A stretch of DNA of 64,000 bases, from positions 64,001 to 128,000 of IMG/VR virus record IMGVR_UViG_3300028804_000001; one strand, 5' to 3'. The DNA is from a virus (Duplodnaviria; Caudoviricetes). This document shows positions 7,272 to 41,961 of the stretch, in pieces. Each line of letters starts with the position of its first letter. Within the stretch, counting starts at the first letter, position 1. The notes below the pieces were generated by a model. It was not told the DNA's origin. It searched no databases and saw only the letters and a list, made by a program, of their open reading frames with translations. Both the position numbers and the translations under genes were made by a program.

Positions 7272-7934
7272 TCACTTACCAGAAGCTGCTGCCTTCTCGG
7301 CTGCTTTCTGATTCTTCTCCACTTTAACGTGGTCAGCAGTGTTGCTGATAATCGTAGGATTACCAATCAGCTGCCGATAGGTTGCCTTGTTTCCGCGGGT
7401 AGTGTAATCTACTCGCAGATAGTCAACCTCTACGCGACTTCCAAGCGGAATGTTCTTGAGCATTTGGTCTCCTTCCGCTTTGAGACGATCCTTGATGGAT
7501 ACTCCCTTGGCACGAGCCAGAGGAACTTGCAAACGATTTGCAAGAGATCCACCAAATTGCCCTTCAGATGCAATCCACAATCCCAGCCCAACCTGATTCA
7601 GGTTCATCCGGCCTTGTTGATCCATCCCTTCATGACGATCGTAACCAATTACGATGCCACGAAGTTTCCCTTGATGAATTACTCCATCAATGGAATTCTT
7701 TGGACCGCGGAAATCGGGAACTTCTGCATATTCATGATAAATCCCTTCGGATTCATCATTGCCAGAAACTCCCATTTTGGTAACGTCTTCGGAGACGAGC
7801 TTTTCGTCTTTTCCGAAGAAATCGAGTTTGGCGAAGCATTCGTTGAACTTTGCTTCTACTCCCGATTTTCTCGGAGATCCCTGAGGACTCGGAGCGTCTA
7901 AGATTGTTGTAGTTGTGGTCATATTCATTCTCAT
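7272..7934 (-). CDS. hypothetical protein
   Basis: 220 aa; contains internal SIKDRL motif. Confidence 0.7.
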   Translation of the reverse strand: MRMNMTTTTTILDAPSPQGSPRKSGVEAKFNECFAKLDFFGKDEKLVSEDVTKMGVSGNDESEGIYHEYAEVPDFRGPKNSIDGVIHQGKLRGIVIGYDRHEGMDQQGRMNLNQVGLGLWIASEGQFGGSLANRLQVPLARAKGVSIKDRLKAEGDQMLKNIPLGSRVEVDYLRVDYTTRGNKATYRQLIGNPTIISNTADHVKVEKNQKAAEKAAASGK

Positions 7935-8028
7935 TCTTATTTAGTGTGGGAATTGGAAAGATCCCTTTTCCCCAATCCCTGAAAAAAAGCGTTCTAGAGT
8001 ATTCTCTAAAACGCTTATATATTTTTCG

Positions 8029-8265
8029 CTAATCTTTTTGATAATGTCGAATATCTGCAGGATCATCTTCTCCAAATGATCCAGTTTCATGATAAGAAGT
8101 TCGGCCAAAGCTTACATTCTTACGCATAACTGTATTACGTGCTAATTGATTCTTACGAATCAGATCAGCGTGATATACTGCAGCAAGGGTATCCTCATTA
8201 TCAGGAAGATTTGATAGCGAGTCAAACAAGCTATCTAGCGCATCTTCATTCGTGTCCTGGATCAT
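8029..8265 (-). CDS. hypothetical protein
   Basis: 78 aa, GGAG SD. Confidence 0.6.
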   Translation of the reverse strand: MIQDTNEDALDSLFDSLSNLPDNEDTLAAVYHADLIRKNQLARNTVMRKNVSFGRTSYHETGSFGEDDPADIRHYQKD

Positions 8266-8305
8266 AGTAGTTTTCTCCTAGTTAGTCTTATAATCCCAAC
8301 AACCC

Positions 8306-8683
8306 CTAGGCAGCTATGAGTTCCACTTCTCCTGGTTCTAGTATTAGAGGCATGCGGTGATGAAACATACTAACCGGCATAATTGACGGTCGTGTTACAA
8401 GCACTACATGACTTGCATTCCTATCAACAAGAGCAGCTACAGTAATAGGTTTACGTTCTCTTAGGAAGAACTTATGTCCACCTTCGTAGAACATATCTAT
8501 CTCTACTGTAGCATCGATCCAATCTTTCCAATAACCGAAAAGATTTTCCTGACGGGCATTATATACTAGATTAGAACCTAGCTTAATGCCCCATTCAGTG
8601 GAAGCAGGACGATTTGCTATTTTTATATCTAAGAAATCTCCTGGTTTAAACAGTTTGTTTCTTGAGCTTACTCGTCCACACAT
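8306..8683 (-). CDS. minimal SRAP (YedK/HMCES) abasic-site processing protein
   Basis: N-terminal MCGR, WG, NARxE, HHRMPLIL; start moved to MCGR after the GGAGG SD. Confidence 0.85.
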   Translation of the reverse strand: MCGRVSSRNKLFKPGDFLDIKIANRPASTEWGIKLGSNLVYNARQENLFGYWKDWIDATVEIDMFYEGGHKFFLRERKPITVAALVDRNASHVVLVTRPSIMPVSMFHHRMPLILEPGEVELIAA

Positions 8684-8710
8684 AGTAAACCTCCACAAAC
8701 TGAAAAAAGA

Positions 8711-9250
8711 TCAGTCCCACCAGATACGGATATAACTCTTACCTTCTACATCCTCGATACTAATTTCATCGGGACTACCAAGGACATTCCATGGGAATGG
8801 AGAATGCCTAAAACTTCTGGAGTTAACACACATATCAAAATAAGTATGTTCTTTAATACTAATTTTATAATTAGGATTTACTTCAAGATATACTGCGAAA
8901 TCGTCAAACTCTTCATTGGATGCATACCATCCAATAATAACAGATTTGATCCATGAAAAACTCTTTAGGTAGTTTTCAATCTGGATTACTTCAACAGCAG
9001 CCATTAATGGAGTGATTTGAATATTCTCATACTGACCTTTATCATTCTTTCTACGGTCAGTTCCAAGATCTTTTCCAAACCATTTCATGAATTCGGGGAG
9101 TCTTTTAAGGGCTTGATTATTTAACTCATCAGCTTCTCGAATTTTCTTTAAATGTTCTTGTTCTTGTTCTGATTTCTTTATCTTATCAAGTTGTTGCTGC
9201 GCTTTCTCTAATTGTTTCTGCGCTTTCAACTTCTGAGCTGATGTTGCCAT
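8711..9250 (-). CDS. hypothetical protein
   Basis: 179 aa, ends in RIWWD. Confidence 0.65.
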   Translation of the reverse strand: MATSAQKLKAQKQLEKAQQQLDKIKKSEQEQEHLKKIREADELNNQALKRLPEFMKWFGKDLGTDRRKNDKGQYENIQITPLMAAVEVIQIENYLKSFSWIKSVIIGWYASNEEFDDFAVYLEVNPNYKISIKEHTYFDMCVNSRSFRHSPFPWNVLGSPDEISIEDVEGKSYIRIWWD

Positions 9251-9529
9251 TAGACTTTCTCCTTTCTTTTTCAGTAAGATGCCATAAAATAGCTTTCCGG
9301 CGTGATTTTCCAGTGAGGTTAATTATAGCCTCAACTTCAGCTTGGTTTATTCTGACTGGCTTTGGTTCTTTCTTCTTCTTTGGTTTTGCCATCTGGTATT
9401 CCCATATAAACATGTTCTACTTCAGGATTTTTAAATTCCTGGTCTTCTACCAAAGTGTCAGAAGTAACCTCCACATCAGCTTCCTGATGCAGAGGTTTAT
9501 CTGTTTCCGGGATCATCTTGTTTATCCTT

Positions 9530-10018
9530 CTAATTTACTGACGTTGTATCCATGATCATAGTCTGTGTAGAGATTACTTTAACTACATCAGTTAACAACT
9601 GATCTGTGTAATTAATTACCCAGATATTTGATAACGCAAGTGCAAGTGAATCTGCATACTCAATACTATATTCTTCTACTGGATTAATTTCAGTAATAAT
9701 GTGTGCATAAACTGTTTGAGTTACAACCATCCTGATCATTCCGAGCAGCATAGGATCCATATCCTCTACTACAGAATGAAGGAATTCTTCGGAAAGAGTA
9801 TTCTTACCAAACATGGTAAGCAACTTCTCTCTTGTTGAACAAACCGGGCATTGCAAAACTGCTTGATTTGAAAGAGATTCGTTCATGCTTTTTGCATATG
9901 CGCCGCAAATGATTTGGACTGTTTCTTTACAGGATTTATCGAATATCTTCTTTCTCTGATCTGCAGAGAGATTATCAAATATATCCTGAGCTTTAAGTAC
10001 AAAGTTTGTATTAAACAT
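9530..10018 (-). CDS. hypothetical protein
   Basis: GGAGG SD, CxxC. Confidence 0.65.
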   Translation of the reverse strand: MFNTNFVLKAQDIFDNLSADQRKKIFDKSCKETVQIICGAYAKSMNESLSNQAVLQCPVCSTREKLLTMFGKNTLSEEFLHSVVEDMDPMLLGMIRMVVTQTVYAHIITEINPVEEYSIEYADSLALALSNIWVINYTDQLLTDVVKVISTQTMIMDTTSVN

Positions 10019-10051
10019 AACAAACCTCCACACCCTGAAAAAAAAAAAGAA

Positions 10052-10444
10052 TTAGAACGGGATTTCATTTTCTTCTAATCCAGTTTTATCTTCTATATAT
10101 GACTCATGTTCTTCTGTTAAGAACATCTTTAATGCAACTATTGGATTATAACCACTTTCATTTTCTAAAATGGATCCAATCCATTTCATTTCATGTTTCT
10201 CTTTAGTCCATACTATGTTCCTGGAATCTAATTCATGATGACTTCCATCAATTAATAATATCTTATCATCTTTAAGAGCCTGACTTAGAATTCTAGCAAT
10301 TCTATCAGAAACATATATTTCAGGATGACTTGTTCCAGCCATGGTCACTATAACCATTTCCGGAACACCATCAGGATGAGAACGATCGTCTATTGGCCGG
10401 GGGGTATTTCCTTTTAACTTTTCTTTATGACTTATCTTTTTCAT
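10052..10444 (-). CDS. hypothetical protein with SSB-like acidic tail (EEIPF-type)
   Basis: 130 aa ending EENEIPF. Confidence 0.6.
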   Translation of the reverse strand: MKKISHKEKLKGNTPRPIDDRSHPDGVPEMVIVTMAGTSHPEIYVSDRIARILSQALKDDKILLIDGSHHELDSRNIVWTKEKHEMKWIGSILENESGYNPIVALKMFLTEEHESYIEDKTGLEENEIPF

Positions 10445-10871
10445 AATTAAATTTTACTCTGGTATTTAGTTCTTCAGTAATAACCAAATCACCGATGTGT
10501 ACAAACCAATCCATAGCATTTCCACCAGTGCTGGATAAGGCTTCTATCCAGAAATTTGGTGTTCCTTTATGTTTAGCCCATTCTACCCAGGGATAAACAT
10601 CTAACTTTTCTGTAGGAAAGATAAATTGAACTTCGGTCTTATTAACTATAGAACCATCTTTCCATTTTTGTTCTGGATCTGGATCTGAAGTAAACCACAC
10701 TACGTTAGGTTCAACTATATGATATGGATTAAGGCAGGAATCTGTAGCTAGAAGGATTCCTTTTTCGTTTATGCTATTTAAATGAAATAATGAAGTGAAA
10801 TGATAAAGATACTCTGGCTTTCTATAATTAAGAGTCTGCTCAATCGTCTTCGGGATAATCAGGTTCGTCAT
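10425..10871 (-). CDS. ADP-ribosyltransferase-fold protein (putative)
   Basis: LYHFTS..HL.SI...GI and VWFT motifs typical of small H-type ART-fold phage proteins. Confidence 0.5.
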   Translation of the reverse strand: MTNLIIPKTIEQTLNYRKPEYLYHFTSLFHLNSINEKGILLATDSCLNPYHIVEPNVVWFTSDPDPEQKWKDGSIVNKTEVQFIFPTEKLDVYPWVEWAKHKGTPNFWIEALSSTGGNAMDWFVHIGDLVITEELNTRVKFNYEKDKS

Positions 10872-11124
10872 CACCATAATTCTCCATTGCATCTTCTTCT
10901 ATTTTAGTAATAGTCTTATCATCTAACTGATCTGTGATATCTTTACCAGCTTCATCAGTAATTGAATCTATTTCAATATGTGCCGGCTCATCTGGTTCAA
11001 TAGGAGGTCCCCATCTTCCATCACGAGCTCCTCTATAATAAGGATAGAAAGTATAATCTACGGTTACTTCCTGTTCTGCTTCTCCAACTTCTACAGTTGT
11101 TTTAAAGCTTCCAGTCTTTGCCAT
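10840..11124 (-). CDS. acidic hypothetical phage protein
   Basis: 94 aa, GAGG SD, PPIEPDEP. Confidence 0.65.
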   Translation of the reverse strand: MAKTGSFKTTVEVGEAEQEVTVDYTFYPYYRGARDGRWGPPIEPDEPAHIEIDSITDEAGKDITDQLDDKTITKIEEDAMENYGDDEPDYPEDD

Positions 11125-11155
11125 ATTATACCTCTAATTAATAATTATAGTAATG

Positions 11156-11237
11156 TGTTCCGGGCGAGACTTGAACTCGCACAGCTTGCGCCGAGGGATT
11201 TTAAGTCCCTTGTGTCTACCGATTCCACCACCGGAAC
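11156..11237 (-). tRNA. tRNA-Leu(TAA)
   Basis: Cloverleaf GTTCCGG/CCGGAAC, anticodon arm AGGGA-CTTAAAA-TCCCT, long variable arm. Confidence 0.93.
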
Positions 11238-11243
11238 TTAATG

Positions 11244-11317
11244 TGTCTCGAGAAGGATTCGAACCTTCGACCCTTTGCTTAGAAGGCAAATGCTCTATCC
11301 AACTGAGCTATCGAGAC
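11244..11317 (-). tRNA. tRNA-Arg(TCT)
   Basis: Canonical cloverleaf, TTTGC-CTTCTAA-GCAAA. Confidence 0.95.
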
Positions 11318-11325
11318 AATGACTA

Positions 11326-11706
11326 CTATTCTAAAATGATATTAACTTTCTCAGATACCTGAGAAATAATATCTCTTCTTAACTTCTTAAGAGTCTTTTC
11401 ATCATATGAGATATATTGTGATGTTCTATTAAAGCTACTGAGTAAACTTTCAATAGCTCTATCTAATGATAATCCACGGCCTTTTGGCCGGTAGTTCATA
11501 TCATCTGGACTACATTCTGAAGTCCCAAGCCAGATTAAATCTTGTTCATTCATATTCTGAATGGAACATACAATAGTTGAGATGGTAAGCTCTTTGATAA
11601 GAGTATGCTTTCTACCGTGTCTTTTAAGAATAACGGTTTTAATTTCTTCGATCTTTGTATCATATCTCCACCATACTCTATACTGTTTATTTTCAATTGT
11701 GAACAT
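11326..11706 (-). CDS. hypothetical phage protein
   Basis: G.SECSPDD.Y....GR.LSL.RA motif seen in small phage proteins. Confidence 0.65.
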   Translation of the reverse strand: MFTIENKQYRVWWRYDTKIEEIKTVILKRHGRKHTLIKELTISTIVCSIQNMNEQDLIWLGTSECSPDDMNYRPKGRGLSLDRAIESLLSSFNRTSQYISYDEKTLKKLRRDIISQVSEKVNIILE

Positions 11707-11738
11707 GTTGAACTCCGGTTATTATTTATGTATTATGA

Positions 11739-11890
11739 AGATCCCCAGCTCAGGAGCAAGGTGGCCGCGTTACCACTTATACAATACTCCCGAACCAGTT
11801 GCAACTTAACGGCTGCCAATCGTAAGGTTTCCTGGATAATCAGCTAAAGGACTCACAAATCCAATAGCCCTGATACCTTCAAACGGATCT
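11739..11890 (-). ncRNA. unidentified structured RNA in tRNA cluster
   Basis: Terminal pairing AGATCC/GGATCT; 12-bp G-U-rich stem GGTTCGGGAGTA/TGCTCCTGAGCT enclosing a GTGG/CCAC hairpin; no good ORF. Confidence 0.45.
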
Positions 11891-11951
11891 TAACTAACTT
11901 AGCTTGTCGCCAGTTAAGAGGATATCTACGTTACTATACGTAGATAACATG

Positions 11952-12029: not shown

Positions 12030-12045
12030 CAATGAAAACATTTTG

Positions 12046-12514
12046 CTCCCCCGCCTGGGCTCGAACCAGGGACCTAGTGAGAGATTATTTTCTTCTTAAA
12101 GTTAAACTTACCGATACATACTCTAGAACAGAAATTGTAAGGCCTTTTGAGTTTAAATGGTCTAACTCTAAATTCCTTTTTACAATATGCGCATTTTGCA
12201 TTTGCAGTAGAAATCTCTTTGTGTTCCTTATTATGCAAATCTATTTGCTTTAACTCTAAGTTATCAATTCTATTATCGGTTTTGTCATGGTTCTTATGAT
12301 GTATAACTTCCAAATTCTTTTTCGGAAGTTTTCTACCATTTTGCCACCATACTAGATGGTGTTGATAGCAATAACGCTCTCTATATTTCTTACCAGGATA
12401 ATCAGTTGGAGCTACTACTAGTATATAAGGCCCATTCTTCATGAATCTTATATTAACAGAGTTGCACTAGCAAGTCAACAACAATATATGCTCTACCGAC
12501 TGAGCTACAGGGGA
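12046..12514 (-). pseudogene. tRNA-Asn-like gene split by promoter plus HNH insertion
   Basis: 5' half TCCCCTGTAGCTCAGTCGGTAGAGCA (12489-12514) and 3' half TCACTAGGTCCCTGGTTCGAGCCCAGGCGGGGGAG (12046-12080) flank the insert. Confidence 0.8.
12074..12442 (-). CDS. HNH homing endonuclease with C-terminal Zn ribbon
   Basis: HHLVW...IHHKNHDKTDNRIDNLEL...H...H, CxxC...FCSRVC; promoter TTGACT-N17-TAATAT 7 nt before ATG (leaderless). Confidence 0.9.
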   Translation of the reverse strand: MKNGPYILVVAPTDYPGKKYRERYCYQHHLVWWQNGRKLPKKNLEVIHHKNHDKTDNRIDNLELKQIDLHNKEHKEISTANAKCAYCKKEFRVRPFKLKRPYNFCSRVCIGKFNFKKKIISH

Positions 12515-12528
12515 TTATAGAGTTGATA

Positions 12529-13587: not shown

Positions 13588-13944
13588 CTATGTAAAAGTG
13601 ATATGACCTAATCTTTCTAGTTCTTCTACAGCGTCTTTTGCGTCCTTAAGACCGACTCCTATAACAGCTCTAAAACTTTTGATTTGGTCTATCTTACCAC
13701 CTGAAAAAGAAACTTTCTCAAAGTCTTCTTTTGAATATTGTGCAAGTATAGGATTATCTGCAAAAGGGTACTCGGCTCCTGAAGGATTTTGATTGAGTAT
13801 CATTTTAGCTAAAGCGACCGCTTCTTTATTATCTGGGTGTAATAATAGAACAAGTTCGGCAGCTCCATTAAGCCGGGTTAATTTATGCTCCAGATCATCC
13901 ATTGACTCTTTAACAACTGTTTTCAATTTATCCTTGAGACTCAT
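13588..13944 (-). CDS. protein with ribosomal bL12 (L7/L12) C-terminal-like domain
   Basis: KIDQIKSFRAVIGVGLKDAKDAVE matches L7/L12 KI.VIK.VR..TGLGLKEAK.LVE. Confidence 0.75.
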   Translation of the reverse strand: MSLKDKLKTVVKESMDDLEHKLTRLNGAAELVLLLHPDNKEAVALAKMILNQNPSGAEYPFADNPILAQYSKEDFEKVSFSGGKIDQIKSFRAVIGVGLKDAKDAVEELERLGHITFT

Positions 13945-14134
13945 TGAATTCCTCTTTTACTTTATTGCGGTTATGAATTGTATCAAAACAAGTTTTGCAA
14001 ACTGGTCCTCGCATTTCATCCTTAGGAAACTTCTTGTTGCATTTTACACATGAGCCTCTTGGAATATACACAGTTTTCTTCTTCTTTCTAAAGATTCGAC
14101 TAATATGTTCTTTGTTATAGCCTTTACTAGTCAT
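13928..14134 (-). CDS. small Zn-ribbon protein
   Basis: CxxC...CxxC. Confidence 0.55.
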   Translation of the reverse strand: MTSKGYNKEHISRIFRKKKKTVYIPRGSCVKCNKKFPKDEMRGPVCKTCFDTIHNRNKVKEEFNESQG

Positions 14135-14510
14135 CTTGTTCCTCTACAACATTACTGGGAAACTTTAAAATGCTAAATGGTTTTATCTGATCAAAATCCA
14201 TTTGTAGTCTTAAGGATGCATATATCAAATGCTGCTGGTCCCATTTATAAGGATCCCATTGTGCAATTCCAGTAAGTAAATCTATTAGAAATGTTAATCT
14301 TTTATTTCCAATAGTGTCGTATATAGCTTTAAAGAAGCTGTTATTAATTACTGTATTTATGTCCTGTATATCAGTTATATCTATAGATAGACCAATAACT
14401 GGATTTAAGAATTGGGTGTCTTGAACTAGTACTGAGAAGGGAACAAGTTTAATTACGCTTGATACACCGCTTTCTGGAAGGATTTCAAGAAGCTTTTCTT
14501 TTAAACTCAT
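14127..14510 (-). CDS. hypothetical protein (MSLKEKL N-terminus)
   Basis: 127 aa, GGAG SD. Confidence 0.65.
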   Translation of the reverse strand: MSLKEKLLEILPESGVSSVIKLVPFSVLVQDTQFLNPVIGLSIDITDIQDINTVINNSFFKAIYDTIGNKRLTFLIDLLTGIAQWDPYKWDQQHLIYASLRLQMDFDQIKPFSILKFPSNVVEEQDD

Positions 14511-14769
14511 TGGATCTTATATCTCCTATTGCAGGAAGTGCGGGTTCAGTATGATAACGATAAGCTCTAATAAGTTTATTTAGAACTCTATTTGATTGTT
14601 CTATATATTTCCTGTCATTGGGAGAATACTCAGATATGTCATATACTAGATTCTGAGTCCAATGCTCTTTTATATTTTTAATCTGCTTCTGTAAATAGAG
14701 AACATAGAGCCTTCTTCTTCTAGATCTTCTGATCCCTTCGTCAAGATATGATTTATTAGTTCTTGGCAT
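14485..14769 (-). CDS. hypothetical protein
   Basis: 94 aa; overlaps neighbours. Confidence 0.45.
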   Translation of the reverse strand: MPRTNKSYLDEGIRRSRRRRLYVLYLQKQIKNIKEHWTQNLVYDISEYSPNDRKYIEQSNRVLNKLIRAYRYHTEPALPAIGDIRSNEFKRKAS

Positions 14770-14915
14770 TCTTGTGCACTCTCATTTGATATTGTTACCG
14801 GAACTACTTCTAATAAGCCACTATTAGTTTTTAAAGTAACTGTTCCTTTTATTACAGGTATCTTGCTTAACTGACTGTTAAGCTTACCATCTTGCAGTCT
14901 GTTTTTAATACTCAT
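14670..14915 (-). CDS. hypothetical protein (MSIKNRL N-terminus)
   Basis: 81 aa. Confidence 0.55.
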   Translation of the reverse strand: MSIKNRLQDGKLNSQLSKIPVIKGTVTLKTNSGLLEVVPVTISNESAQECQELINHILTKGSEDLEEEGSMFSIYRSRLKI

Positions 14916-15046: not shown

Positions 15047-16356
15047 TTAATCTTCTGTAATATCTCGAACGTTAATTCCTCGAGGGAATCCCTTTTTAAT
15101 TGTAGCTAACTTCACTCTTCCTCTTTTCCGGAAAGTAATGTCTCTTCTGGATTCCATAAGAGCCATACCGGATCCAGTTTCAGAGAAGCCTTTAGCTTTC
15201 ATATTAGATCTGATAAGTTGATCTATAATAGGGTGATGTCCTGTGTATGAACATTCAATTTCCATTTTGCTGCTCCTTTTTTATATTCCTTTTAATCTCT
15301 TCAATTCGTGTTTCCGCTTGAAGCATTATAGATAAGCGGGTCTGGACCTGTGCAATCTTTGGATCTTCTGAGTAACCAGGCTTTCCATCTGAAAGCTTAT
15401 TAAGAATAAGATACATATCTTCAGTTGTGAGTAGATTCGGTGCCATCTTCTTCCTCTCTTACTGGAGATATATAAGTATCACAGTCCTTACAGATTACTG
15501 CCATGCGAGCATGTGCTGCATCTGTACCCCACAGTGCTACATGAGTATCTTGATGTTTACACTCAGATCTTAAGAAATCAAGTTGACCCTGACATTCTTC
15601 AATCTTACGATATACTGCGTTAACTCTCTGACGGATGCTCATTTTTCTCTCCGGAATATGGGACTTCTCTTAATGTTAGTTTATTATCTAATAACCATTT
15701 ATCCAGTTCTGGATCGCTTACCCAGGTATTATCGAATTCTGGATCGTGCACATCAATTACTTTTTGAGTAGATATTTCTACTCGTTCAAATCTAATACCT
15801 AGAATAGCAGCTAGTGTAATTGGTATTGGACCACTAAATACACCTGCGTTATTTATTGTTACATACCAGTCTCTGCTACAGTGATAACACCATATATGAG
15901 ATTCATATTCCGACCATGTTATTTTATGATTATGTTCTAATGGGCATGCCATTCCATAACTAGATGGTTTCATTATCCAATGATGGGTTCTTAAAACTTT
16001 AGGAGCCTCTAATAATAACTTAAGATTGTCAGGAATCTTAAATTCTAGTGGAAGCTGATTATCCATTAGCGTTTGTCCATATGTTTAACACATACAGTTC
16101 CATCAGGAATGTATGGATAATAATGACTCAGTGTTGCTGCATATGTGTTGCATTTCCAGCAGCGGATAATAGTAGATTTATCTTTTACTTTAGATTTCTT
16201 TACCCGCTTCCAGGAATCTGTTCCTACTCTAACGAAACAGGTATCCTCATCAGTTCCATAATCAGCGGCTAAATGAATCCCACCGCCAATAAATCCAGAG
16301 TTTCCTTTTAAAGTTCCGCGGAACTTCTTTTCTTTCTTAACTCTTTTAATTGGCAT
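15047..16356 (-). other. run of five small overlapping hypothetical ORFs (15047-15265, 15255-15446, 15421-15642, 15620-16066, 16066-16356)
   Basis: Translationally coupled, SD-bearing, several with CxxC motifs. Confidence 0.6.
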
Positions 16357-18328: not shown

Positions 18329-18625
18329 TTAGTAAAATACTAAGTTGCCTTTACGGACTACTAATATTCTTTCATAGCCATCTCTGCCACGGATTTCTAC
18401 TCTAGCTCCTTCTTGAATAGGTATTAAGAAGCTGATTTTATCATTTTTAATAGTATAATCTCTATCCTCAAACAATAACATTCCTTGAAGATATACCATA
18501 AAGGGACTGTTATTAGGTTTCTCTGTAACAACAGTAGTTGCTAAATCAGCTCCGATAGTTTCATATAAAGAATTAATCCGCTGGTTCTTATTCTTTATCT
18601 TTTGAAGCCGGTTTTTGATACTCAT
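18329..18625 (-). CDS. small beta-domain protein (MSIKNRL N-terminus)
   Basis: VYLQG.L...DYTI....I.F..P...G..VEI pattern seen in phage structural modules. Confidence 0.6.
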   Translation of the reverse strand: MSIKNRLQKIKNKNQRINSLYETIGADLATTVVTEKPNNSPFMVYLQGMLLFEDRDYTIKNDKISFLIPIQEGARVEIRGRDGYERILVVRKGNLVFY

Positions 18626-18926
18626 TGTTAATAATTTAAATCTTAATTATAAAACCAATAAGCCGGCCCAAATGAATAATATTAGCAACTGTTATTGCTA
18701 CAAGAATAGACTTAATACTAAAATTAAGAGCGTCTGACTTGCTCCATTTAACAGCTATAAGACCGAGAGCAATAATATTAGCTATTGTAAGATATGTGTC
18801 CATTGTTAACTCCTTAGTTTATCTTGTAATTCCCGAAATATGATAACGATTTTGTATATCTCGATGTGCAGCTAAAGCAGCAGCTTCGCTATCATATCTT
18901 CCAGTTATATTTACATTTCCATCTGA

Positions 18927-19241
18927 TTAATTAATAATAGCATTTTCCCATAATAGTGGTTTCTTCTTATTATTAAATGAATGTGGTATTCCAAGGAATA
19001 TTGTAGATATTGTTATAGGATAGATCCACCATTGATAAGTTAGATTTGTAACTAATACCTGTCTATTAAGTGGATCTTCAAACCATTTACTCCATACTAA
19101 TACATCATTTGTCTTTGTAATTATTCCAGTGAATCTATCTCTTATAAATAGATCCATCTTCATCATTTGTATTGTATTATTTAGATCTATAACTATTTGC
19201 TCAGAATGAGATAGAGCTATAAGCTTTTCTTTAAGGCTCAT
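18927..19241 (-). CDS. hypothetical protein (MSLKEKL N-terminus)
   Basis: 104 aa. Confidence 0.6.
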   Translation of the reverse strand: MSLKEKLIALSHSEQIVIDLNNTIQMMKMDLFIRDRFTGIITKTNDVLVWSKWFEDPLNRQVLVTNLTYQWWIYPITISTIFLGIPHSFNNKKKPLLWENAIIN

Positions 19242-19615
19242 GATCTATCTATTCCATCAAGGAATTGACTATAACTAATTATAGGAATTCCATATCTAAT
19301 CGCTGCCCTTCTCTTTACTGTCATTCTATTAGGATTATCGGTAATTAGATAATTGGTCCTATAATGAACTCTATTTTCAACGGTATAGCCAGCTCTATTA
19401 GCATATGCTATCATTATATGTCTTGGCTGGGGACCGGCGCCTGTAAAAACAACTGGTCCACCTGTTCTTAATAATGCTGTAGATCTTCCGGTTGATAATC
19501 TTACAGATCCAGTCTTACCATGAATATTAGTATTCTTCTTTTTTCTTACTTTAGAAGCTTCTCTCTTCTTTTTAATCTTTTGAATATTCTGAGAGAATCT
19601 ATCTTTAATAGACAT
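19238..19615 (-). CDS. BRCT-domain protein (MSIKDRF N-terminus)
   Basis: VVFTG...G..V...V...TNYLIT...K...A...GIPIISY..F, a ligase-type BRCT pattern; start moved to the SD-bearing ATG. Confidence 0.75.
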   Translation of the reverse strand: MSIKDRFSQNIQKIKKKREASKVRKKKNTNIHGKTGSVRLSTGRSTALLRTGGPVVFTGAGPQPRHIMIAYANRAGYTVENRVHYRTNYLITDNPNRMTVKRRAAIRYGIPIISYSQFLDGIDRS

Positions 19616-19955: not shown

Positions 19956-20072
19956 TTAGCACGCTAATGCTATTAAGTCCCAGTAACTATTAATATTATT
20001 ACGTTCTTTAAATGATATTAATCTTTCTTTAAAGCTTTTATGATTGTTATCTTCTATATAGATTAAATACAT
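19956..20072 (-). CDS. 38-aa peptide with tandem SFKER motif
   Basis: Hand-translated MYLIYIEDNNHKSFKERLISFKERNNINSYWDLIALAC; fills the gap between neighbours. Confidence 0.45.
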   Translation of the reverse strand: MYLIYIEDNNHKSFKERLISFKERNNINSYWDLIALAC

Positions 20073-20289: not shown

Positions 20290-20517
20290 CTACCCTTTAG
20301 CTTTTTTATTCTTAGCTTTACCTTTAACATCACTGGCCTTTTTCTTAGTAATAGTTAAAGGCAAATAATGTTCACAAGTTTGATCTTCTTTAAGAGGCAC
20401 TTCTGAAAACCAGGACTGTCGATATTCATCAGGAGTTGCAGTATATCTATAGCAAGTAGATTTCATATGGCATGAACTCTTCTTTGTAACTCCAACACAC
20501 ATTGTGATGTCTGGCAT
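20290..20517 (-). CDS. small Cys-rich protein, paralog of 21624-21815
   Basis: MPDITMC.G...C....C.RY.A.PD..RQSWFSE.P. Confidence 0.7.
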   Translation of the reverse strand: MPDITMCVGVTKKSSCHMKSTCYRYTATPDEYRQSWFSEVPLKEDQTCEHYLPLTITKKKASDVKGKAKNKKAKG

Positions 20518-21623: not shown

Positions 21624-21815
21624 TCATACTTCCTCCTGATTCAATTCCCTGCGATACGGAATGTAAGAATTGCAGGGCTCATTTTTCTGTATTGGAGCCT
21701 CACTAAACCAGCTTTGCCGCCTGCTATCGGGAATGGCTATATAGCGATCGCATCCATGCTTCTCGCGGCAATCGAGTGTTTTCGTTATACCTGTACACAT
21801 TGTAAAATCAGGCAT
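21624..21815 (-). CDS. small Cys-rich protein, paralog of 20290-20517
   Basis: MPDFTMCTG...RQSWFSEAP. Confidence 0.7.
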   Translation of the reverse strand: MPDFTMCTGITKTLDCREKHGCDRYIAIPDSRRQSWFSEAPIQKNEPCNSYIPYRRELNQEEV

Positions 21816-23460: not shown

Positions 23461-23700
23461 TTATCTTGAAATTCTGTTATTAAGGATATAATTTTTCCAG
23501 CGGATTAATTCATCACCTTCAGCCTTCTTAATTTCTAATATTCTATCAGAGCCCCATATATCGTTGGCTATTTTTCTAGCCTGTAGATGGCCATTAGCTT
23601 CTACAAACCATAGCGGATAACCAATCAACTCTACAGTATATATACCTTTAAAATCACCTATTTCAAGTATCCTTTCTATCAACCGTTCTTTAATACTCAT
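23461..23700 (-). CDS. hypothetical protein (MSIKERL N-terminus)
   Basis: 79 aa. Confidence 0.6.
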   Translation of the reverse strand: MSIKERLIERILEIGDFKGIYTVELIGYPLWFVEANGHLQARKIANDIWGSDRILEIKKAEGDELIRWKNYILNNRISR

Positions 23701-24207: not shown

Positions 24208-24790
24208 TTAGACAGGATGGTTGTATGATGCTACGAAGTCCTCGAGCTCATACTTAACCACTGCTTCTTGTACGGATAGCTTGGAGCCATCCGGGAAGGT
24301 TAATATAGTGTTATGATTGTTATCTTTAGCCAGTTTTAGTGCTTGTAGGCAAGTTTCTGCAGCATCTACGCCGCGGATTTTATAGTCCGATAGGTTATAG
24401 CATAAATGCCATCGGACCTTTAATAACATATCATCATCAGGATCTACTATAGGGATAGATAATAACCGCTTTAAAATTTCAAGCACGGTTAAGACTCCTT
24501 CTGAATGATAATGAATCCTGGCCTAGATGATTGTATTCATCCGGATCAACAGGAATATCTCCTGTTTTGAATACCTGCCGTGCGCTTTCATACCGCGCAC
24601 AAAACGCTGCGGTGTCTTCTAGCTCTATATGAAATAGCTCCCATAGGAGCAGCTGAAGATCGCGGGGGGTATAGCCTCTGGCTGTCTGATCGTTCCGTTG
24701 GATAGGCACCGCAAGTCGTTCCTTGAACGATACATTACCGGCTTCAATAGATACCCGATTTTCTTCGGCCGGCACCTCAGTTATCACCAT
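24208..24790 (-). other. two coupled hypothetical ORFs (24208-24486, 24479-24790)
   Basis: ORF track; the second carries an internal SFKERL. Confidence 0.6.
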
Positions 24791-34237: not shown

Positions 34238-35674
34238 ATGGGAATAACCACAATGCTGGGAAAACTACTTAACCTGCTTCGAATAAGAAAAGACGATAAG
34301 CTTTTTCAGATGGCACATTTTGATCAGGTTACCGGCCTTTCTAATAGGCGAACATTCTTTAATGAGATGGAGAGATTGGTTACCAAATGTGACAGAAACA
34401 AAGGCAACTTCGTTCTTCTATTCTTTGATCTTGATAACTTTAAACCGGTTAATGATACCTACGGGCATGAAGTTGGAGATGTTGTTTTAAAACTCCTGGC
34501 AGGAAAACTTACAAAGGAGATGCGCAAGTCTGATGCCATTTACCGGTTAGCTGGAGATGAGTTTGTTCTTGTATCTGAGAATATACCAAATTCAAAAACT
34601 GCTGCTATAATTGCTGAGAAGCTTATACGTATATGCTCGGAAGATATCCACGTAGATGATAAGATCACCGTCAATGTCTCAGCCTCGGTAGGAGTATGCT
34701 TCTACCCTACTGATGCAGACTCTGTTAAAGATCTACTTCGAAAAGCAGATACTGCTATGTATCTTGCTAAGAAGAAAGGCGGTGGAACTTTCCAGATGTA
34801 TGCTGGGGAAGTTCATGAGAAAGTCATGGAGAAGATGCGGATAGAAACCAGCATCAAACAGGATCTCAAAACTAAGAACCCTGGCTTTCAGGTAATGTAT
34901 CAACCGCAGATAAATATAAAGACCGGCAAGGTGGTTGGGTTTGAAGCACTTCTCAGATGGAATAACCCTTCTATTGGAATGGTTGATACTGGTAAGCTTA
35001 TCTCTATTTGTGAGGAATCTAATCTCATAATCGATGTTGATAGATTTGTTTTAAAACAAGCATGTCAGGATATTAATAAAATTAACGCGGAACTTGGAAC
35101 AAGATTATTCGTTAGTGTAAACTTCTCTCCCAAATATCTTTATTCCAAGGAAGTTGTTAAGGATGTAATGAACATCCTGGAACAAACATATACAATACCT
35201 CAGGTTGTAGAGATTGAAATAACTGAGAGAACTGTTATGGCTGATATGGATATGGCAGCTCTTAATATCATGAATCTGTCCAAAGAGGGAATCAAAGTAG
35301 CCCTGGATGACTTTGGAATAGGTGCATCTTCTCTTAACTACCTTAAGAAATTCAAGGTCAATAAGCTTAAAATAGACCGGGCTTTCATTAGAGATATAAT
35401 GAATAATGAGGATGATAGGAAGATTGTAAATGCTATCCTGGCTATGGCCTACCATTTTGATCTTGAATGCACTGCGGAAGGGGTAGAAACTAAGACTCAG
35501 ATGCAGTTTTTAAAGGCCAATGGGTGCGATCATGTTCAGGGATATTACTATAGCAGAGCTCTTCCAGTGGACGAAATGCTAACTCTTCTTCTGAAATCTA
35601 GAGAAAGAAAGAGATTGAAGCAGGAAGAAATGATCCAGATTTTAACCAAATATCATGATGATATAATAACTTAG
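34238..35674 (+). CDS. GGDEF-EAL c-di-GMP turnover protein
   Basis: DLDNFK.VND..GH..GD, RLAGDEF, YQPQ, FEALLRW, EITE, DDFGIG, KIDR, AEGVE, QGY. Confidence 0.95.
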   Translation: MGITTMLGKLLNLLRIRKDDKLFQMAHFDQVTGLSNRRTFFNEMERLVTKCDRNKGNFVLLFFDLDNFKPVNDTYGHEVGDVVLKLLAGKLTKEMRKSDAIYRLAGDEFVLVSENIPNSKTAAIIAEKLIRICSEDIHVDDKITVNVSASVGVCFYPTDADSVKDLLRKADTAMYLAKKKGGGTFQMYAGEVHEKVMEKMRIETSIKQDLKTKNPGFQVMYQPQINIKTGKVVGFEALLRWNNPSIGMVDTGKLISICEESNLIIDVDRFVLKQACQDINKINAELGTRLFVSVNFSPKYLYSKEVVKDVMNILEQTYTIPQVVEIEITERTVMADMDMAALNIMNLSKEGIKVALDDFGIGASSLNYLKKFKVNKLKIDRAFIRDIMNNEDDRKIVNAILAMAYHFDLECTAEGVETKTQMQFLKANGCDHVQGYYYSRALPVDEMLTLLLKSRERKRLKQEEMIQILTKYHDDIIT

Positions 35675-35831: not shown

Positions 35832-36650
35832 CTAAAAATTAGCCGATGTAGATTTCATAAAAACATCAATTCTGTTCATAATCTTAGCAGCTACTATAGC
35901 GTAGCCTTCTGGAGTGGGGTGAATCTGCTCACCCCAGTATTTCTTTGGTATCTTTCCTCTAAGATCTACTACTTCCAGACATGGTGTTTCCTTTGCCAGC
36001 TTTAACAATTCCTTATTTGTTATATCTACAAACTCTCTGACTATCTTACTAGCCAGAGGAATAGGAACATTGTTATTATAAAAGAACTCTTTAAGCATAG
36101 CGGTAAACTTAGAATTGGGTTCTTTTTCTGGGTGGAAATAATCATATCCATGAATAATAATCTTGAAGTATTTTAAGTGCCCATACTTCTCATACTGTCT
36201 AACCAGGCTTGTTACATATCTCTTTAACTGTGGAAACATTACCGTTTTTATAAAGTTCGTAAGATGCTTTTTCTTCAGCTTGCATTTGGATCCGGATCCT
36301 GACATAAACGATGAGAAGATGTTCAGCATATCATTCCCACCAAGTGATAAAACTATAACCAGGGGTCTTCTAAGGTTTACTATTTTAAGTGCAAGATCGC
36401 AGAGTCTGTTCTTTATTTCATCTTCCAGTGTGTATCCAGGAATTGCACAGTTAATAAGTGGATACTTTTGCTTGATCCAATCAATCGTATCCCAATGTAA
36501 TGGCCCTCGATCAAACAATCTTCTGTTTAGCCAGGAATCTCCTATGGCAATAATAGAAGGAACTTTCTTGCGCAGTATTAATCTTAATAATAATAGCCGT
36601 AGTTTTTTTCTTAAAACAGCTGCGCTAAAGAGCATGCTCACTAGCTTCAT
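35832..36650 (-). CDS. SGNH/GDSL hydrolase
   Basis: GDSW, GGND, IHPT.EGY. Confidence 0.8.
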   Translation of the reverse strand: MKLVSMLFSAAVLRKKLRLLLLRLILRKKVPSIIAIGDSWLNRRLFDRGPLHWDTIDWIKQKYPLINCAIPGYTLEDEIKNRLCDLALKIVNLRRPLVIVLSLGGNDMLNIFSSFMSGSGSKCKLKKKHLTNFIKTVMFPQLKRYVTSLVRQYEKYGHLKYFKIIIHGYDYFHPEKEPNSKFTAMLKEFFYNNNVPIPLASKIVREFVDITNKELLKLAKETPCLEVVDLRGKIPKKYWGEQIHPTPEGYAIVAAKIMNRIDVFMKSTSANF

Positions 36651-36690
36651 TTAAGAGATTGTTCTCTTTTATGCAAAAATGTACCCATTT

Positions 36691-36752: not shown

Positions 36753-36802
36753 ATATATGATTTCTAATTGACTGAACCTTCGCAAGTATCATTATTGTCC
36801 GG

Positions 36803-37411: not shown

Positions 37412-37414
37412 AAT

Positions 37415-37756
37415 ATGAAAGTTGTATTCTCAAACAGAGAGCGCAAACTTCCTGGGTGGAAAAAGAAAGTAAAGGCTGCCAATGGCAATGCGGTATTTGT
37501 AGTTATAAACAGTCATCCGGATATAGATGTGTGGATAGATTGTAATTACGAGATGGAAAAAGATGTTAAGAAGGATATGCATCTTCCCTGGAATATTTCA
37601 GATCCTGTCCCAGAGGATCCGGATATTGTCCTCTATCCTGTATGGCCTATAGGATTAAATGGACTTATATATTTAATAATCCCTATTAATGAGAATATTG
37701 AGGATATCGGAAGCCAAATTCTACTTGCGGCCTCAAAGAAACCGGCTATCAATTGA
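37415..37756 (+). CDS. hypothetical protein
   Basis: 113 aa. Confidence 0.6.
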   Translation: MKVVFSNRERKLPGWKKKVKAANGNAVFVVINSHPDIDVWIDCNYEMEKDVKKDMHLPWNISDPVPEDPDIVLYPVWPIGLNGLIYLIIPINENIEDIGSQILLAASKKPAIN

Positions 37757-38146
37757 TGAATGTTAGATCCTCTTATAGCAGCAGTAATAGTATTTTGCTG
37801 CTCGGCAGAGTTTATATGGTTATGTCTCATGCTTGCAATGCTAGAAGAGAAGGCGCTGTTCATACCAAAACAGAAGAAAAAGAATGAGCAAAAGAAGCTC
37901 AAGAAGCAGAAGACCCAAAGAAAAACGGTATACAATCCCACCCGTCGTGAGCGGGGAATGGGGTCAAAGAAGTATTGAGGAGGATTTAAAACAAGATAAA
38001 AGAATCAATAGAGATTCGGATGGATCCTTTACAACAACAGATTTGGCAGTAGCTAGAGAATATGCTAGTAAGCTGAGAGGATCATCTGTAATGGGTAAGT
38101 GTTGCGATTTAATGCCAAGATGTGAACATTGGAAAGGAGATATCTG

Positions 38147-38599
38147 ATGAGTTCTGAGAAATGGGATAAGAGATTTATGGAAATGGCTAAGCTGGTAGCT
38201 AGCTGGAGCAAGGATCCATCTACTAAAGCCGGCGCTGTTATTGTAAGACCGGATAAAACTATCGTATCTGTTGGCTATAATGGATTCCCATCTAAGATGC
38301 CAGATGATCCAAAGATGTATGAAAATAGAGAGGAGAAATACTCTCGGATTGTACATGCGGAGGTCAATGCTCTTATCTTCTCGAGAGAACCGGTGGTAGG
38401 ATACACACTATACACATACCCATTCCTTTCATGTGATAGATGTTTTTCCCAGCTAGCCCAGGCAGGAATCTCAACATTTGTATCTCCCATATGTCCTCCA
38501 CATCTTCTAGAAAGATGGGGGAAATCATTTGATATGGTCAGATTACGGGCTAAGGAAATGGGAATTAATATCCAAGAGTATGAGGATATAACGCCATGA
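38147..38599 (+). CDS. dCMP deaminase
   Basis: SKDPST..GA, GYNG, HAE.NA, CxxC. Confidence 0.93.
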   Translation: MSSEKWDKRFMEMAKLVASWSKDPSTKAGAVIVRPDKTIVSVGYNGFPSKMPDDPKMYENREEKYSRIVHAEVNALIFSREPVVGYTLYTYPFLSCDRCFSQLAQAGISTFVSPICPPHLLERWGKSFDMVRLRAKEMGINIQEYEDITP

Positions 38600-39096
38600 A
38601 CAAACAAACTCCAACTGCTAAAGAATATTCCAGATCTATTAAACAATCATTGATGGAGAATATTCTAGCGTTTAACGACACCGCGTTTATCCATTGTTTG
38701 CCACATAAGGATTTGATCATAGGTAGACGGGGTCTTCAAGGAAAAGAAAAAACAGAAGGTATTGTTCTGGTCCTTGGGCCTACAAGCTATAAGGATATTG
38801 TTATAGAAGAGGATTGCATTAAAACGAGTTTGCAGTTCGGTCAGAAATGGGAAAATATTACGATACCATTGGACTCTTTGGTATCTATATGGGACAAACA
38901 TGGTTTCTTTCAAATAAGATTGGCCGTATTTGAAGATGAGCTTTTAGAAGAAGCAGATACTCCAACTATTACAGATCCAGCAATAGATAATCCAGATTCT
39001 ATGGGAAATTCTCCACCGGAAAAGAAAAAAACAACAGTAAAAAGCGAAGGTAATGTGGTTGCTGTTGATTTTATCAAAAGAAAGAAGATAAAATGA
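38596..39096 (+). CDS. sspB: SspB-like ClpXP adaptor
   Basis: IVL..GP....L.F....I.IP...I.D core and NVVAVDF..KK tail. Confidence 0.65.
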   Translation: MNKQTPTAKEYSRSIKQSLMENILAFNDTAFIHCLPHKDLIIGRRGLQGKEKTEGIVLVLGPTSYKDIVIEEDCIKTSLQFGQKWENITIPLDSLVSIWDKHGFFQIRLAVFEDELLEEADTPTITDPAIDNPDSMGNSPPEKKKTTVKSEGNVVAVDFIKRKKIK

Positions 39097-39455
39097 GCAT
39101 TAAGGATAGACTACAAAGAAAGAAAGTTATCCTAGAGAAGAGAGCAGCCCGGAAAGAATTATTTCGAGTTAAAAAGAAAATCCAGGAACTCATTGATTCT
39201 GGAAATCCATCTAAAGTAGAAATCCGAGGAACTCTAGAATTTGTAGATGGGAGAGAAGAAGTAAGAGTAATAGGCCAGTGCTATATAGATGAAAATCAAC
39301 AAATATGGGTTCTTACAGAGAGTAATGAATTGGTAAAGTTTATTGCAACTGAGTCGCAGAGGAATGCTATAGTTGAATTAATGGAACATCAACGAAGAGC
39401 TATGGAAGAGTTAGAAGATCAAGAAAGAATATACACAACTATGTTAGGAGATTAG
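39093..39455 (+). CDS. hypothetical protein (MSIKDRL N-terminus)
   Basis: 120 aa. Confidence 0.65.
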   Translation: MSIKDRLQRKKVILEKRAARKELFRVKKKIQELIDSGNPSKVEIRGTLEFVDGREEVRVIGQCYIDENQQIWVLTESNELVKFIATESQRNAIVELMEHQRRAMEELEDQERIYTTMLGD

Positions 39456-39639
39456 TAATGACCATACTCAATATCTTTTTAATCGTATTATGTATATGGC
39501 TAATATGTTCAATAATTACATTTATAGCTATAAGGCGGATGAATCCTAAGAGAAAAATACCTATTGATATTCTAGTTAGTTTAGGATTGGGTCCCTTTGG
39601 TATTATACTTTTAATGATTGCTTTAGCGCAGGGGTAATA

Positions 39640-39915
39640 ATGTCAGAACTTTGTTATTATGTTGATGATCATGGAGATATGTGCCGCAATATGGCAGAAT
39701 GGGAGATAGCTCACTATGAAAGAGCTGGAAATCTAGAAACAGAAGAAGAGATATTGGATCCAGACGATGTATGTGAATTTGTTACATGCACTTGTAATAA
39801 TCATCTACTTCAAATGTTAGAAAAGAATTATGTGAATGTTGTCCAACATATGAAGGAAAAGGTGGATATTGGAACCCATCTGAATGGGATCATGACAGCA
39901 GAATCTTTAAACTAG
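39640..39915 (+). CDS. hypothetical protein
   Basis: 91 aa. Confidence 0.55.
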   Translation: MSELCYYVDDHGDMCRNMAEWEIAHYERAGNLETEEEILDPDDVCEFVTCTCNNHLLQMLEKNYVNVVQHMKEKVDIGTHLNGIMTAESLN

Positions 39916-39925
39916 GAGAAGAGAA

Positions 39926-40849
39926 ATGAATAAAAGAATACTTGTAACCGGCGGGAATGGATTTCTCGGATCCTATGTAGTTGATCGCCTCGAACAACTA
40001 GACCATAAGGTAGATCATCCTGATAGAAAAAGATGTAATCTTCTAGATGAGAAGAATCTCTACGACTATCTATCCTGGCTATCTCCAGATATAGTAATCC
40101 ATCTAGCTGCCGTTGTTGGAGGAATTGGAGCAAATAAAGAGAATCCTGGAAAGTTCTTCTATGAGAACATGCAGATGGGCATGAATATGATTCATGCTGC
40201 ATCTAGATTAGGTGTTGGAAAATTCGTATTTGTTGGAACTACCTGTTCCTATCCAAAATTTACTCCTGTCCCATTCAAAGAAACGGATATATGGAATGGC
40301 TACCCAGAAGAGACTAATGCACCATATGGAATTGCAAAGAAAGCACTTATTTCTATGGGCAATGCTTACCGGCAGCAATATGGATTGAACTTTATATCTC
40401 TATTGCCGGCTAATCTATATGGACCAAAAGATAACTTTGATCCAAGTGCAAGCCATGTCATTCCAGCACTGGTAAGAAAGTTTCAGGAAGCCAAAGATAA
40501 TAATTCTGAAGGTGTTACATTATGGGGAACTGGTTCAGCATCGAGAGAATTTCTATTCGTGGAAGATTGTGCCCGCGGGATCTGTCTAGCCACAGAAAGG
40601 TACGATAAAGAAGAATCGGTCAACCTTGGTTCAGGTAAAGAAATATCAATAAAGGAAGTTGCTACTATTATTGCCGAAGAGATTGGGTATTCTGGTATGA
40701 TCATATGGGATAGTTCAAAACCAGATGGTCAGCCCAGAAGATGCCTTGATACTAGCAGAGCTAAAGAGTTTGGCTTTGAAGCTAGTAAGGATTTTAGAAC
40801 CGGTGTAAGAGAAGTAATAGCCTATTGGAACCAGGTTAAATCTTCATGA
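39926..40849 (+). CDS. fcl: GDP-L-fucose synthase
   Basis: TGG.GFLG, HLAAVVGGIGAN, CSYPK, YGIAK, NLYGP.DNF, KPDGQPRR. Confidence 0.95.
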   Translation: MNKRILVTGGNGFLGSYVVDRLEQLDHKVDHPDRKRCNLLDEKNLYDYLSWLSPDIVIHLAAVVGGIGANKENPGKFFYENMQMGMNMIHAASRLGVGKFVFVGTTCSYPKFTPVPFKETDIWNGYPEETNAPYGIAKKALISMGNAYRQQYGLNFISLLPANLYGPKDNFDPSASHVIPALVRKFQEAKDNNSEGVTLWGTGSASREFLFVEDCARGICLATERYDKEESVNLGSGKEISIKEVATIIAEEIGYSGMIIWDSSKPDGQPRRCLDTSRAKEFGFEASKDFRTGVREVIAYWNQVKSS

Positions 40850-41961
40850 ATGATGTTATCTACGATAGCTATAATCCTAAATTAATCCAGCTTACTAACC
40901 AGTTAGAGCAGCTAATTAAAAAGGATCCAGATCTTGTTTTTCAAGATGATCTATTAAAAGCCATTCATTACACAGTGCACAATCGCAAATGGGTTAATAA
41001 ACGACAGTATGATGAGGCTATGCTGTCCATAAAAAAGAAACTGTCATTACACGGCAAAGTCCAGGAAGCAGCGGTACGTCCGGAGTAGTGAACATGAACG
41101 TCTTACCATGTCTTCTAAAAAGAAGAGTAAGACTAATGACTCATCTATCGCTTCTATAAGTGAAGAAGTCTACGGGACAGTTATCTTTTTTCTCTATTGC
41201 CCTGCAAGGGATCTTAAAAAACATATACTAAAGAGCAAATCGATAGTAGATACTTTTGGAGATTCAAAAACTAGAGACCATGTAACTGAAACGCCTGCAC
41301 CTGATAGCCATGGAGAAACAACTACATGGGTAAACAAGTTTAAAGATAATGACAGGCTGTATATTTTAATATGGATAAACTCAGAAACAATTACTAAGTC
41401 TAGAGGTTTCGAACACTTAGCTGGAATAGTTGCACATGAATCTCTCCATGCTTCTATATTTGCTCTTAAAAGATTACAAGTAGAGGTAGATGTAGAATCG
41501 CAAGAAGCGATCTGCTATTATATACAATGGATAGTATTAAATCTTACAAAATGGATAAAGGACAAATGGTAGCATCCCGTTACAACGATGGGATGATCAG
41601 AGTCTATTGGAACCTTCATAAGAAGTGTTATTCATTATCAGTTTATAGAAAAGGAAAAGGTTGGAGTAAAGTAGAACATAAGGACCATGTTCAGTTAAAG
41701 AATGCGTTTCCTCTAGTAAGAGTTAGAGGTAGAGAACGAGTAAGAAAAGAAAAAAGAAAGAACGTGCATGCATTCCTAATAGGATATCCGGCCGATAATC
41801 TTAAAATCGGTCTTTCTAAAATTACATATAATCCTTATGAGAATGAAACATTTGTTATAAATAGCATAGCGGGAGAAAAAGAATGGGAGGGTGGATCCAT
41901 TATAATGAAAGTAGATAACTTTCCAGATGGGCCCAAACCAAGAATCCATTTAGCATTTTAA
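40846..41961 (+). other. three hypothetical ORFs (40846-41088; 41108-41572 with HExxH; 41566-41961 with VYWNLHK)
   Basis: ORF track; HESLH is a possible Zn site. Confidence 0.6.

Follow-up and report, generated by a model that had tools for sequence, protein, structure and literature searches.

A discrete N-terminal heptapeptide recurs on small, otherwise unrelated proteins in one region of a large phage genome

The 64,000-nucleotide stretch analysed here, which we refer to as the window, comprises bases 64,001–128,000 of a single 225,628-bp virus record in IMG/VR (IMGVR_UViG_3300028804_000001; classed as linear, about 83% complete). We found that a set of small genes in this window encode proteins that begin with nearly the same seven residues, and that this shared peptide, the tag, is a real and discrete feature that is N-terminal and regional. 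A first-pass annotation of the DNA had picked out nine such N-termini, and all nine are where it had placed them: nine open reading frames (ORFs), named here by the position of their first base and listed in Table 1, begin MS[ILF][KR][DENQ][KR][LFV]. In seven of the nine the ATG is the first possible start, with an in-frame stop at most nine codons upstream. The core heptapeptide of the eight strong tags is Met-Ser-[Ile/Leu]-Lys-[Asp/Glu/Asn]-[Arg/Lys]-[Leu/Phe]. The tag is probably a short linear recognition signal by which a single partner handles these proteins collectively.

The pattern S[IL]K[DEN][RK]L occurs eight times in the six frames of the 225.6-kb genome, seven of them directly behind a start Met. 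Relaxing it to S-hydrophobic-[KR]-x-[KR]-hydrophobic after ATG, GTG or TTG brings in just one more, a spurious 32-codon ORF. For comparison with other gene starts we used 247 genes from a simple caller based on codon bias and ribosome-binding sites, to which 14670–14915 was added by hand, giving 248 N-termini. The proposal in the first-pass annotation had hung on an enrichment over such a background, and the enrichment is there: position-specific residue frequencies at positions 2–7 predict 0.006 tag genes under the strict and 0.026 under the loose definition, against the eight or nine observed, and the count was at most two in every one of 20,000 column shuffles of the N-termini. A reduced-alphabet search made without a prior motif found no recurrent class at either protein terminus in this genome other than the tag. 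In a leave-one-out position-specific scoring matrix (PSSM) the eight tags score 11.8–15.7 bits, and the other N-termini, about 240 in number, reach at most 7.6 bits (mean −4.9, standard deviation 3.6). These eight therefore form a discrete class, whereas the looser MSIRQRV (15642), which had been counted with them, scores 4.4 bits, lies within background and is an insecure member.

The same holds for the encoding DNA, where a degenerate pattern of the tag has eight matches in the genome and its reversed-pattern control has none. The degenerate pattern gave no match in three further large phages, 1.1 Mb in all, and none in G001, a distant relative known from a partial genome (128.5 kb, polymerase 25% identical); five IMG/VR records preselected for having one copy gave one or two matches each. 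A codon-specific scan of IMG/VR returned 39 matches, about the number expected by chance, and never two at one locus. The heptapeptide is found singly at genuine N-termini of unrelated IMG/VR viruses.

The motif is strongly yet not exclusively N-terminal, and its enrichment is regional. We counted as an internal copy any segment away from the N-terminus that scored at least 10.5 bits, with the expectation taken from per-protein shuffles. Between 7 and 42 kb of the window (9,681 residues) there are eight internal copies against 0.76 expected, about a tenfold excess that none of 300 shuffles reached, and the rest of the genome (60,954 residues) has seven against 4.2 expected. The internal SIKDRL, SFKERL, tandem SFKER and SIKKKL that had been reported earlier all exist and exceed chance as a group; TLKEKL in the 36803 ORF, reported with them, falls below the threshold. 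A GTG start directly ahead of SFKERL in ORF 24479 was considered and rejected, the codon being GTA.

Beyond the tag, the proteins that carry it have no detectable relationship to one another, as had been claimed. In an all-against-all BLASTP comparison the alignments were confined to the first 7–15 residues, and each body, stripped of its first 10 residues, matched only itself in the proteome and in the six frames, with no paralogues. A paralogous gene family is thus ruled out, as the similarity ends at the shared terminus and the Pfam domains differ. Pfam also agrees with the earlier assignments of a bL12-like protein (13944) and a BRCT protein (19615), the latter linked by PHROGs to the BRCT end of NAD-dependent ligases; a Pfam search of the remaining tagged proteins gave nothing secure. 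Each of these two proteins is a stand-alone piece of a host housekeeping protein, the factor-binding helix-loop-helix in the case of bL12 and the BRCT end in that of the ligase, and they could act as decoys for host partners. The 19241 gene is a nonsense variant in this genome, its 140-residue Gln allele (window 18804–19241, P0016) being present on 13 other contigs.

Selection acts on the tag as a peptide rather than on its DNA or RNA. Across the nine tags, codons 2–7 differ at 0.96 of synonymous sites (pS) and at 0.27 of nonsynonymous sites (pN), and for codons 8–14, immediately downstream, the values are 0.66 and 0.65. The 70 nucleotides upstream of the tagged genes are unrelated to one another and often belong to the preceding gene. 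Tagged and other genes did not differ in Shine-Dalgarno strength (Mann-Whitney U test, P 0.48), in the fraction of A at +4 to +21 (P 0.37) or in fold energy (P 0.11). We place the constraint on the peptide because the synonymous sites are saturated, the upstream DNA is unconserved, and ribosome-binding strength, A-richness and folding are ordinary; the reading of the synonymous codon variation in the first-pass annotation was the same. Among the other genes that start Met-Ser, 21 of 29 (72%) use AGY at codon 2, compared with a share of 28% among all Ser codons of the genome, so AGY at this position is a start-context codon preference of the genome, independent of the tag. Saturated synonymous sites exclude recent copying of DNA and, together with the unrelated upstream DNA, a DNA-level repeat or recombination cassette. 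An RNA operator or translation enhancer (a downstream box or an A-rich start) was rejected, there being neither nucleotide conservation nor a difference in initiation. Two further ideas, an arrest peptide of the macrolide Lys-x-Arg type and a drop-off peptide linked to Pth, were considered and have no evidence in their favour.

In the tag, position 2 is Ser, position 5 is Asp, Glu or Asn, and positions 3 and 7 are hydrophobic. A Ser-x-x-Asp/Glu pattern is a helix N-capping box that opens an amphipathic helix, and Ser at position 2 should permit removal of the initiator Met. The tag looks like such a box at the head of a charged amphipathic helix: residues 2–15 of the tagged proteins have a mean hydrophobic moment (muH) of 0.38 (range 0.17–0.52) compared with 0.26 for other N-termini (P = 0.006), their net charge is zero or below in four of the nine, and single-sequence AlphaFold2 models of two tagged proteins both begin a helix at residue 3, although with low confidence (predicted local distance difference test scores of 50 and 57.5).

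These helix features bear on the main rival to a recognition tag, which dispenses with any reader. The heptapeptide would then be a favourable start that spread among the fast-evolving small genes of one region, by capture of 5′ ends or by local gene birth, and was kept for expression, folding or stability, its Lys, Glu and Arg codons suiting initiation. We consider this possible, though well short of probable. The capping-box pattern is a textbook one and the AlphaFold2 models agree with it; AGY-Ser at codon 2 is a habit of the whole genome; single copies stand at the N-termini of unrelated IMG/VR viruses; and the regional excess of internal copies fits local sequence habits. However, the general N-terminal preferences of the genome predict 0.006–0.03 such genes, not eight or nine, and the strong tags stand apart from the other N-termini instead of forming one end of a continuum. 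A start favoured for initiation would also be expected to stand out in Shine-Dalgarno strength, A-richness or folding, which are the same as in other genes; one spread by recent copying is excluded by the saturated synonymous sites; and the 1.1 Mb of other large phages hold no copy. A generic capping box would account for Ser 2, Asp/Glu/Asn 5 and the helix predicted from residue 3. Such a box is permissive, yet Lys at 4 and Arg/Lys at 6 are fixed as well, and these, like the clustering of the tag in one genome, it leaves unexplained.

If the tag is a recognition signal, the candidate reader that we rank first, tentatively, is Clp-type proteolysis gear of the phage itself, with the tag serving as a degron or as an adaptor-docking site; it ranks first because a tagged gene is coupled to an adaptor gene, because the phage has an unfoldase of its own and because the tag is strictly terminal. 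The coupled adaptor gene is SspB-like, and its stop codon (TGA) shares bases with the start codon (ATG) of tagged gene 39093. The SspB-like product matches the Pfam SspB family with 29.9 bits (cut-off 27), aligns to PDB 2NYS, an Agrobacterium SspB-like structure, with the basic C-terminal tail included in the alignment, and has SspB proteins in 30 of its 30 nearest ESM Atlas clusters (TM 0.60), all of which indicate a genuine SspB homologue. The tail is presumably ClpX-binding, as in SspB. The earlier suggestion that an SspB-like adaptor might read the tag gains some support from a real gene of this kind overlapping a tagged one. The unfoldase is a two-domain Hsp100 whose D2 domain matches ClpC (PDB 6em9, E 2e-46) and which has a VGF tripeptide aligned to the ClpP-docking GF loop of ClpC. 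All eight strong tags start at residue 2, which together with Met removal suits a terminal degron. G001 has no tag, no SspB and no AAA_2 protein, consistent with a link between tag and adaptor as far as a single partial genome can speak to it.

In the arrangement we propose, the SspB-like adaptor, coupled with gene 39093, and the ClpC-like unfoldase would act with host ClpX or ClpP, the tag being the degron or the adaptor-docking site, and the tagged proteins, or whatever they hold, would be turned over in a coordinated way. Binding, delivery and degradation via the tag are steps that we only infer. An elaborated version, in which a private label sends small accessory proteins to a Clp machine that the phage specifies and that acts together with ClpP or ClpX of the host, whether for clearance of early proteins or, more boldly, for dragging bound host factors to the protease, is in our judgement unlikely.

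A number of points weigh against a Clp/SspB reader. No ClpP gene was found in the record, which is about 83% complete, and the phage Hsp100 has no recognisable N-domain. SspB tethers to ClpX and not to ClpC-type enzymes, and known SspB ligands are extended peptides, unlike the tag. Compared by eye, the tag bears a partial resemblance (polar, hydrophobic, basic, hydrophobic) to the classes of ClpX N-motifs that Flynn et al. reportedly defined in 2003, and it fits none of them. Adjacency to the SspB-like gene holds for one of the nine tagged genes and has a chance probability of about 7%. The roughly eight internal look-alikes would not be fit to act as terminal degrons. Finally, searches of cultured phages, IMG/VR and GTDB found no relatives bearing the tag.

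The closest parallel to a Clp/SspB reader is the ssrA tag, a terminal degron with SspB-assisted delivery to ClpXP. The likeness lies in a short peptide placed at the very end of the protein, in an SspB homologue whose gene is coupled to a tagged one and in a Clp-type unfoldase of the phage; the difference is that the present tag seems to fit none of the recognition classes described for ClpX or SspB. We know of no phage that uses a private degron to label a group of its own proteins. Genes for SspB and Clp ATPases occur in other phages too: pf16 encodes an SspB (PMC5587285), and gp53 of SPO1 is an adaptor-like protein or modulator for ClpCP (PMC6873191). N-terminal ClpX signals on lambda O and Dps are attributed to Flynn et al. 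2003 in a later article (PMC5415555). If the tag is indeed read by the SspB-like protein or a Clp enzyme, this would be the first case in which a phage labels a group of its own proteins for a protease system of which it supplies a part. Two separate observations concern the SspB-like protein itself. Its residues 14–19 read SIKQSL, which is tag-like, and Nitrospirota predominate among the ESM Atlas clusters nearest to it, which hints weakly at the lineage of the host that this sludge phage infects.

Docking onto a different hub or surface, through a membrane-targeting amphipathic helix or onto the ribosome stalk or a site on RNA polymerase or the replisome, is rather unlikely. The amphipathicity of residues 2–15 exceeds that of other N-termini, many neighbouring genes encode small membrane proteins, a groove-binding motif could also function from internal copies, and one tagged protein bears the C-terminal fragment of bL12. 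The N-terminus of SepF is a membrane-targeting amphipathic helix, and in such helices the hydrophobic positions are like those of the tag. On the other hand, amphipathicity past residue 7 is uneven, as the muH range given above indicates, and the retention of Asp, Glu or Asn at position 5, with a net charge at or below zero in four of nine, is unlike membrane-targeting helices. A SepF/MinD-type membrane helix, strongly amphipathic, net-positive and free of conserved acidic residues, is accordingly not what we found. Escherichia coli bL12 itself begins MSITKDQ; Pfam gives no match to the bL12 N-terminal domain, so this stays a resemblance, and mimicry of that domain was rejected.

The T4 capsid-targeting sequence (CTS) is the classic phage case of a terminal address and has been turned into a protein-delivery tool. 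A CTS-like tag would dock small proteins, for example anti-defence proteins, into the assembling prohead for packaging and injection. This reading, also raised by the first-pass annotation, gains no support and is ranked lower than a Clp/SspB reader; we think it doubtful. The T4 ip genes adjoin a tRNA gene, as does the cluster of tagged genes, and the sequence of the T4 CTS differs from the tag. The T4 CTS is carried by internal proteins IPI–III, encoded at the polymorphic ip loci of T-even phages (PMC3012670). It is a precedent exact in kind, in that a short N-terminal peptide is all that is common to small, diverse, fast-evolving and clustered phage proteins; the tagged proteins are of similar size (73–127 residues), and several of them have very basic N-terminal arms. 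Against this reading, there is no constant cleavage residue, as the would-be P1 of a [Leu/Ile]-x-Glu site is Asp, Asn or Gln in six of the nine tags and Glu in three. A T4-type prohead protease (gp21 family, PF03420) gave no match at E ≤ 1, and no ClpP-type protease was found either, results that are weak given a record about 83% complete. The tagged genes lie inside non-structural units with RNA polymerase genes, and the tag is on no head or tail protein.

Neither chance, as an effect of gene starts rich in Lys and in A, nor a paralogy that has gone unnoticed is at all probable: the motif was defined post hoc and gene starts outside the tagged set rest on a simple caller, but the six-frame counts, column shuffles, PSSM gap, unbiased search and empty reversed-pattern control argue against the former, and bodies without similarity and with different Pfam domains against the latter.

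Table 1. Tagged genes, SspB-like and AAA-type genes of the phage, and internal tag-like copies. Positions are those of the window unless marked as genome positions; tagged genes are named by their first base.
Feature	Length (aa)	Peptide	Position	Strand	Remarks
Tagged gene 13944	118	MSLKDKL	13588..13944	-	bL12 C-terminal domain fragment, PF00542 27.4 bits (cut-off 25.9)
Tagged gene 14510	127	MSLKEKL	14127..14510	-	Orphan
Tagged gene 14915	81	MSIKNRL	14670..14915	-	Orphan; start overlaps stop of upstream 44-aa ORF
Tagged gene 15642 (doubtful member)	73	MSIRQRV	15421..15642	-	Cys-rich, weak zinc-ribbon match; PSSM 4.4 bits
Tagged gene 18625	98	MSIKNRL	18329..18625	-	Orphan
Tagged gene 19241	104	MSLKEKL	18927..19241	-	Ends in TAA, where the commoner 140-aa allele has Gln
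Tagged gene 19615	125	MSIKDRF	19238..19615	-	Basic linker of about 50 residues, then LigA-type BRCT (PF00533 32.1 bits)
Tagged gene 23700	79	MSIKERL	23461..23700	-	Orphan
Tagged gene 39093	120	MSIKDRL	39093..39455	+	Sole one outside main cluster; ATG overlaps stop of SspB-like gene (ATGA)
SspB-like adaptor gene	166		38596..39096	+	Candidate tag reader or partner
Two-domain Hsp100 (ClpC/ClpB-like unfoldase)	632		genome 51449-53347	-	12.5 kb ahead of window start
Cdc48/p97-like AAA protein	664		genome 58489-60483	-	One AAA domain; PDB 6chs, E 9e-24
Internal copy, residue 142 of ORF 7272-7922	216	SIKDRL	7482..7499	-	Top internal score, 16.6 bits
Internal copy, residue 21 of ORF 24479-24790		SFKERL	24713..24730	-	PSSM at least 10.5 bits
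ORF with tandem internal copies	38	SFKERLI-SFKERN	19956..20072	-	First repeat counted; Ser and Arg codons differ between repeats
Internal copy, residue 61 of ORF 40846-41088	80	SIKKKL	41026..41043	+	PSSM at least 10.5 bits

Eight of the tagged genes, counting the doubtful 15642, are minus-strand genes grouped within 13.6–23.7 kb, in a stretch of about 34% G+C that is rich in orphan and small membrane-protein genes. On the minus strand, 15 intergenic sites in the interval from 5.3 to 28.5 kb of the window (5284 to 28490; examples at 5284, 8707, 10042, 17221, 26069 and 26675) carry a motif of the form TTTTTCAG-N4-9-GGAGG-ATG, which is present once more on the plus strand at 9267. By 8-mer count, TTTTTCAG occurs in 10 intergenic regions against 0.72 expected, often behind a hairpin, and it seems to punctuate one class of transcription unit, whether as a terminator tail, a promoter or a processing site. 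Tagged genes are never the first behind this motif; they are internal to the units and mostly stop-start coupled to the preceding gene. Units with tagged genes also contain RNA polymerase genes, and because the two share units, the tagged genes are likely to be non-late genes. An HNH_3 homing-type endonuclease gene (window 12074–12442, minus strand) lies at the edge of the cluster, next to the tRNA region. The genome's one other recurrent N-terminus belongs to two small paralogues starting MPDITMC and MPDFTMC (window 20290–20517 and 21624–21815, minus strand).

The record as a whole encodes a T4-type terminase, a portal, an HK97-fold capsid protein, tail fibre genes, a family-B DNA polymerase and very large orphan proteins. 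We found no close relative of it among 50,697 cultured phage records; the DNA polymerase has a best identity there of about 23%, to T4-like cyanophages. A megablast of the tagged-gene cluster against the cultured phages matched a tRNA only, and tblastn gave no match for the 920-residue RNA polymerase or the SspB-like, BRCT and bL12-like proteins. Large-database homologue searches with the gene 39093 protein, the 801-residue polymerase and the BRCT protein each returned the query alone, and single-protein searches of IMG/VR and GTDB genomes for related loci returned nothing. Alignments of the RNA polymerases retrieved only distant loci (L010–L013), none of which has tags; the closer polymerase relatives (P0025–P0031) are 28–50% identical. 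Population variants within 90% clusters are almost identical and uninformative.

Terminal address tags sort, package or destroy groups of proteins, and few are understood in phages. The tag described here, on eight or nine proteins of one uncultured phage lineage, would offer a way into a group of orphan genes that are otherwise closed to study, and identification of its binder would assign a shared fate to all tagged proteins at once. If it does act as proposed, it would be a compact, portable degron or docking peptide.

Elsewhere in the window, the phage encodes a GGDEF-EAL protein in which both domains are strong (34253–35674, plus strand), followed by a GDSL lipase/acylhydrolase gene on the opposite strand (35832–36650, minus strand).

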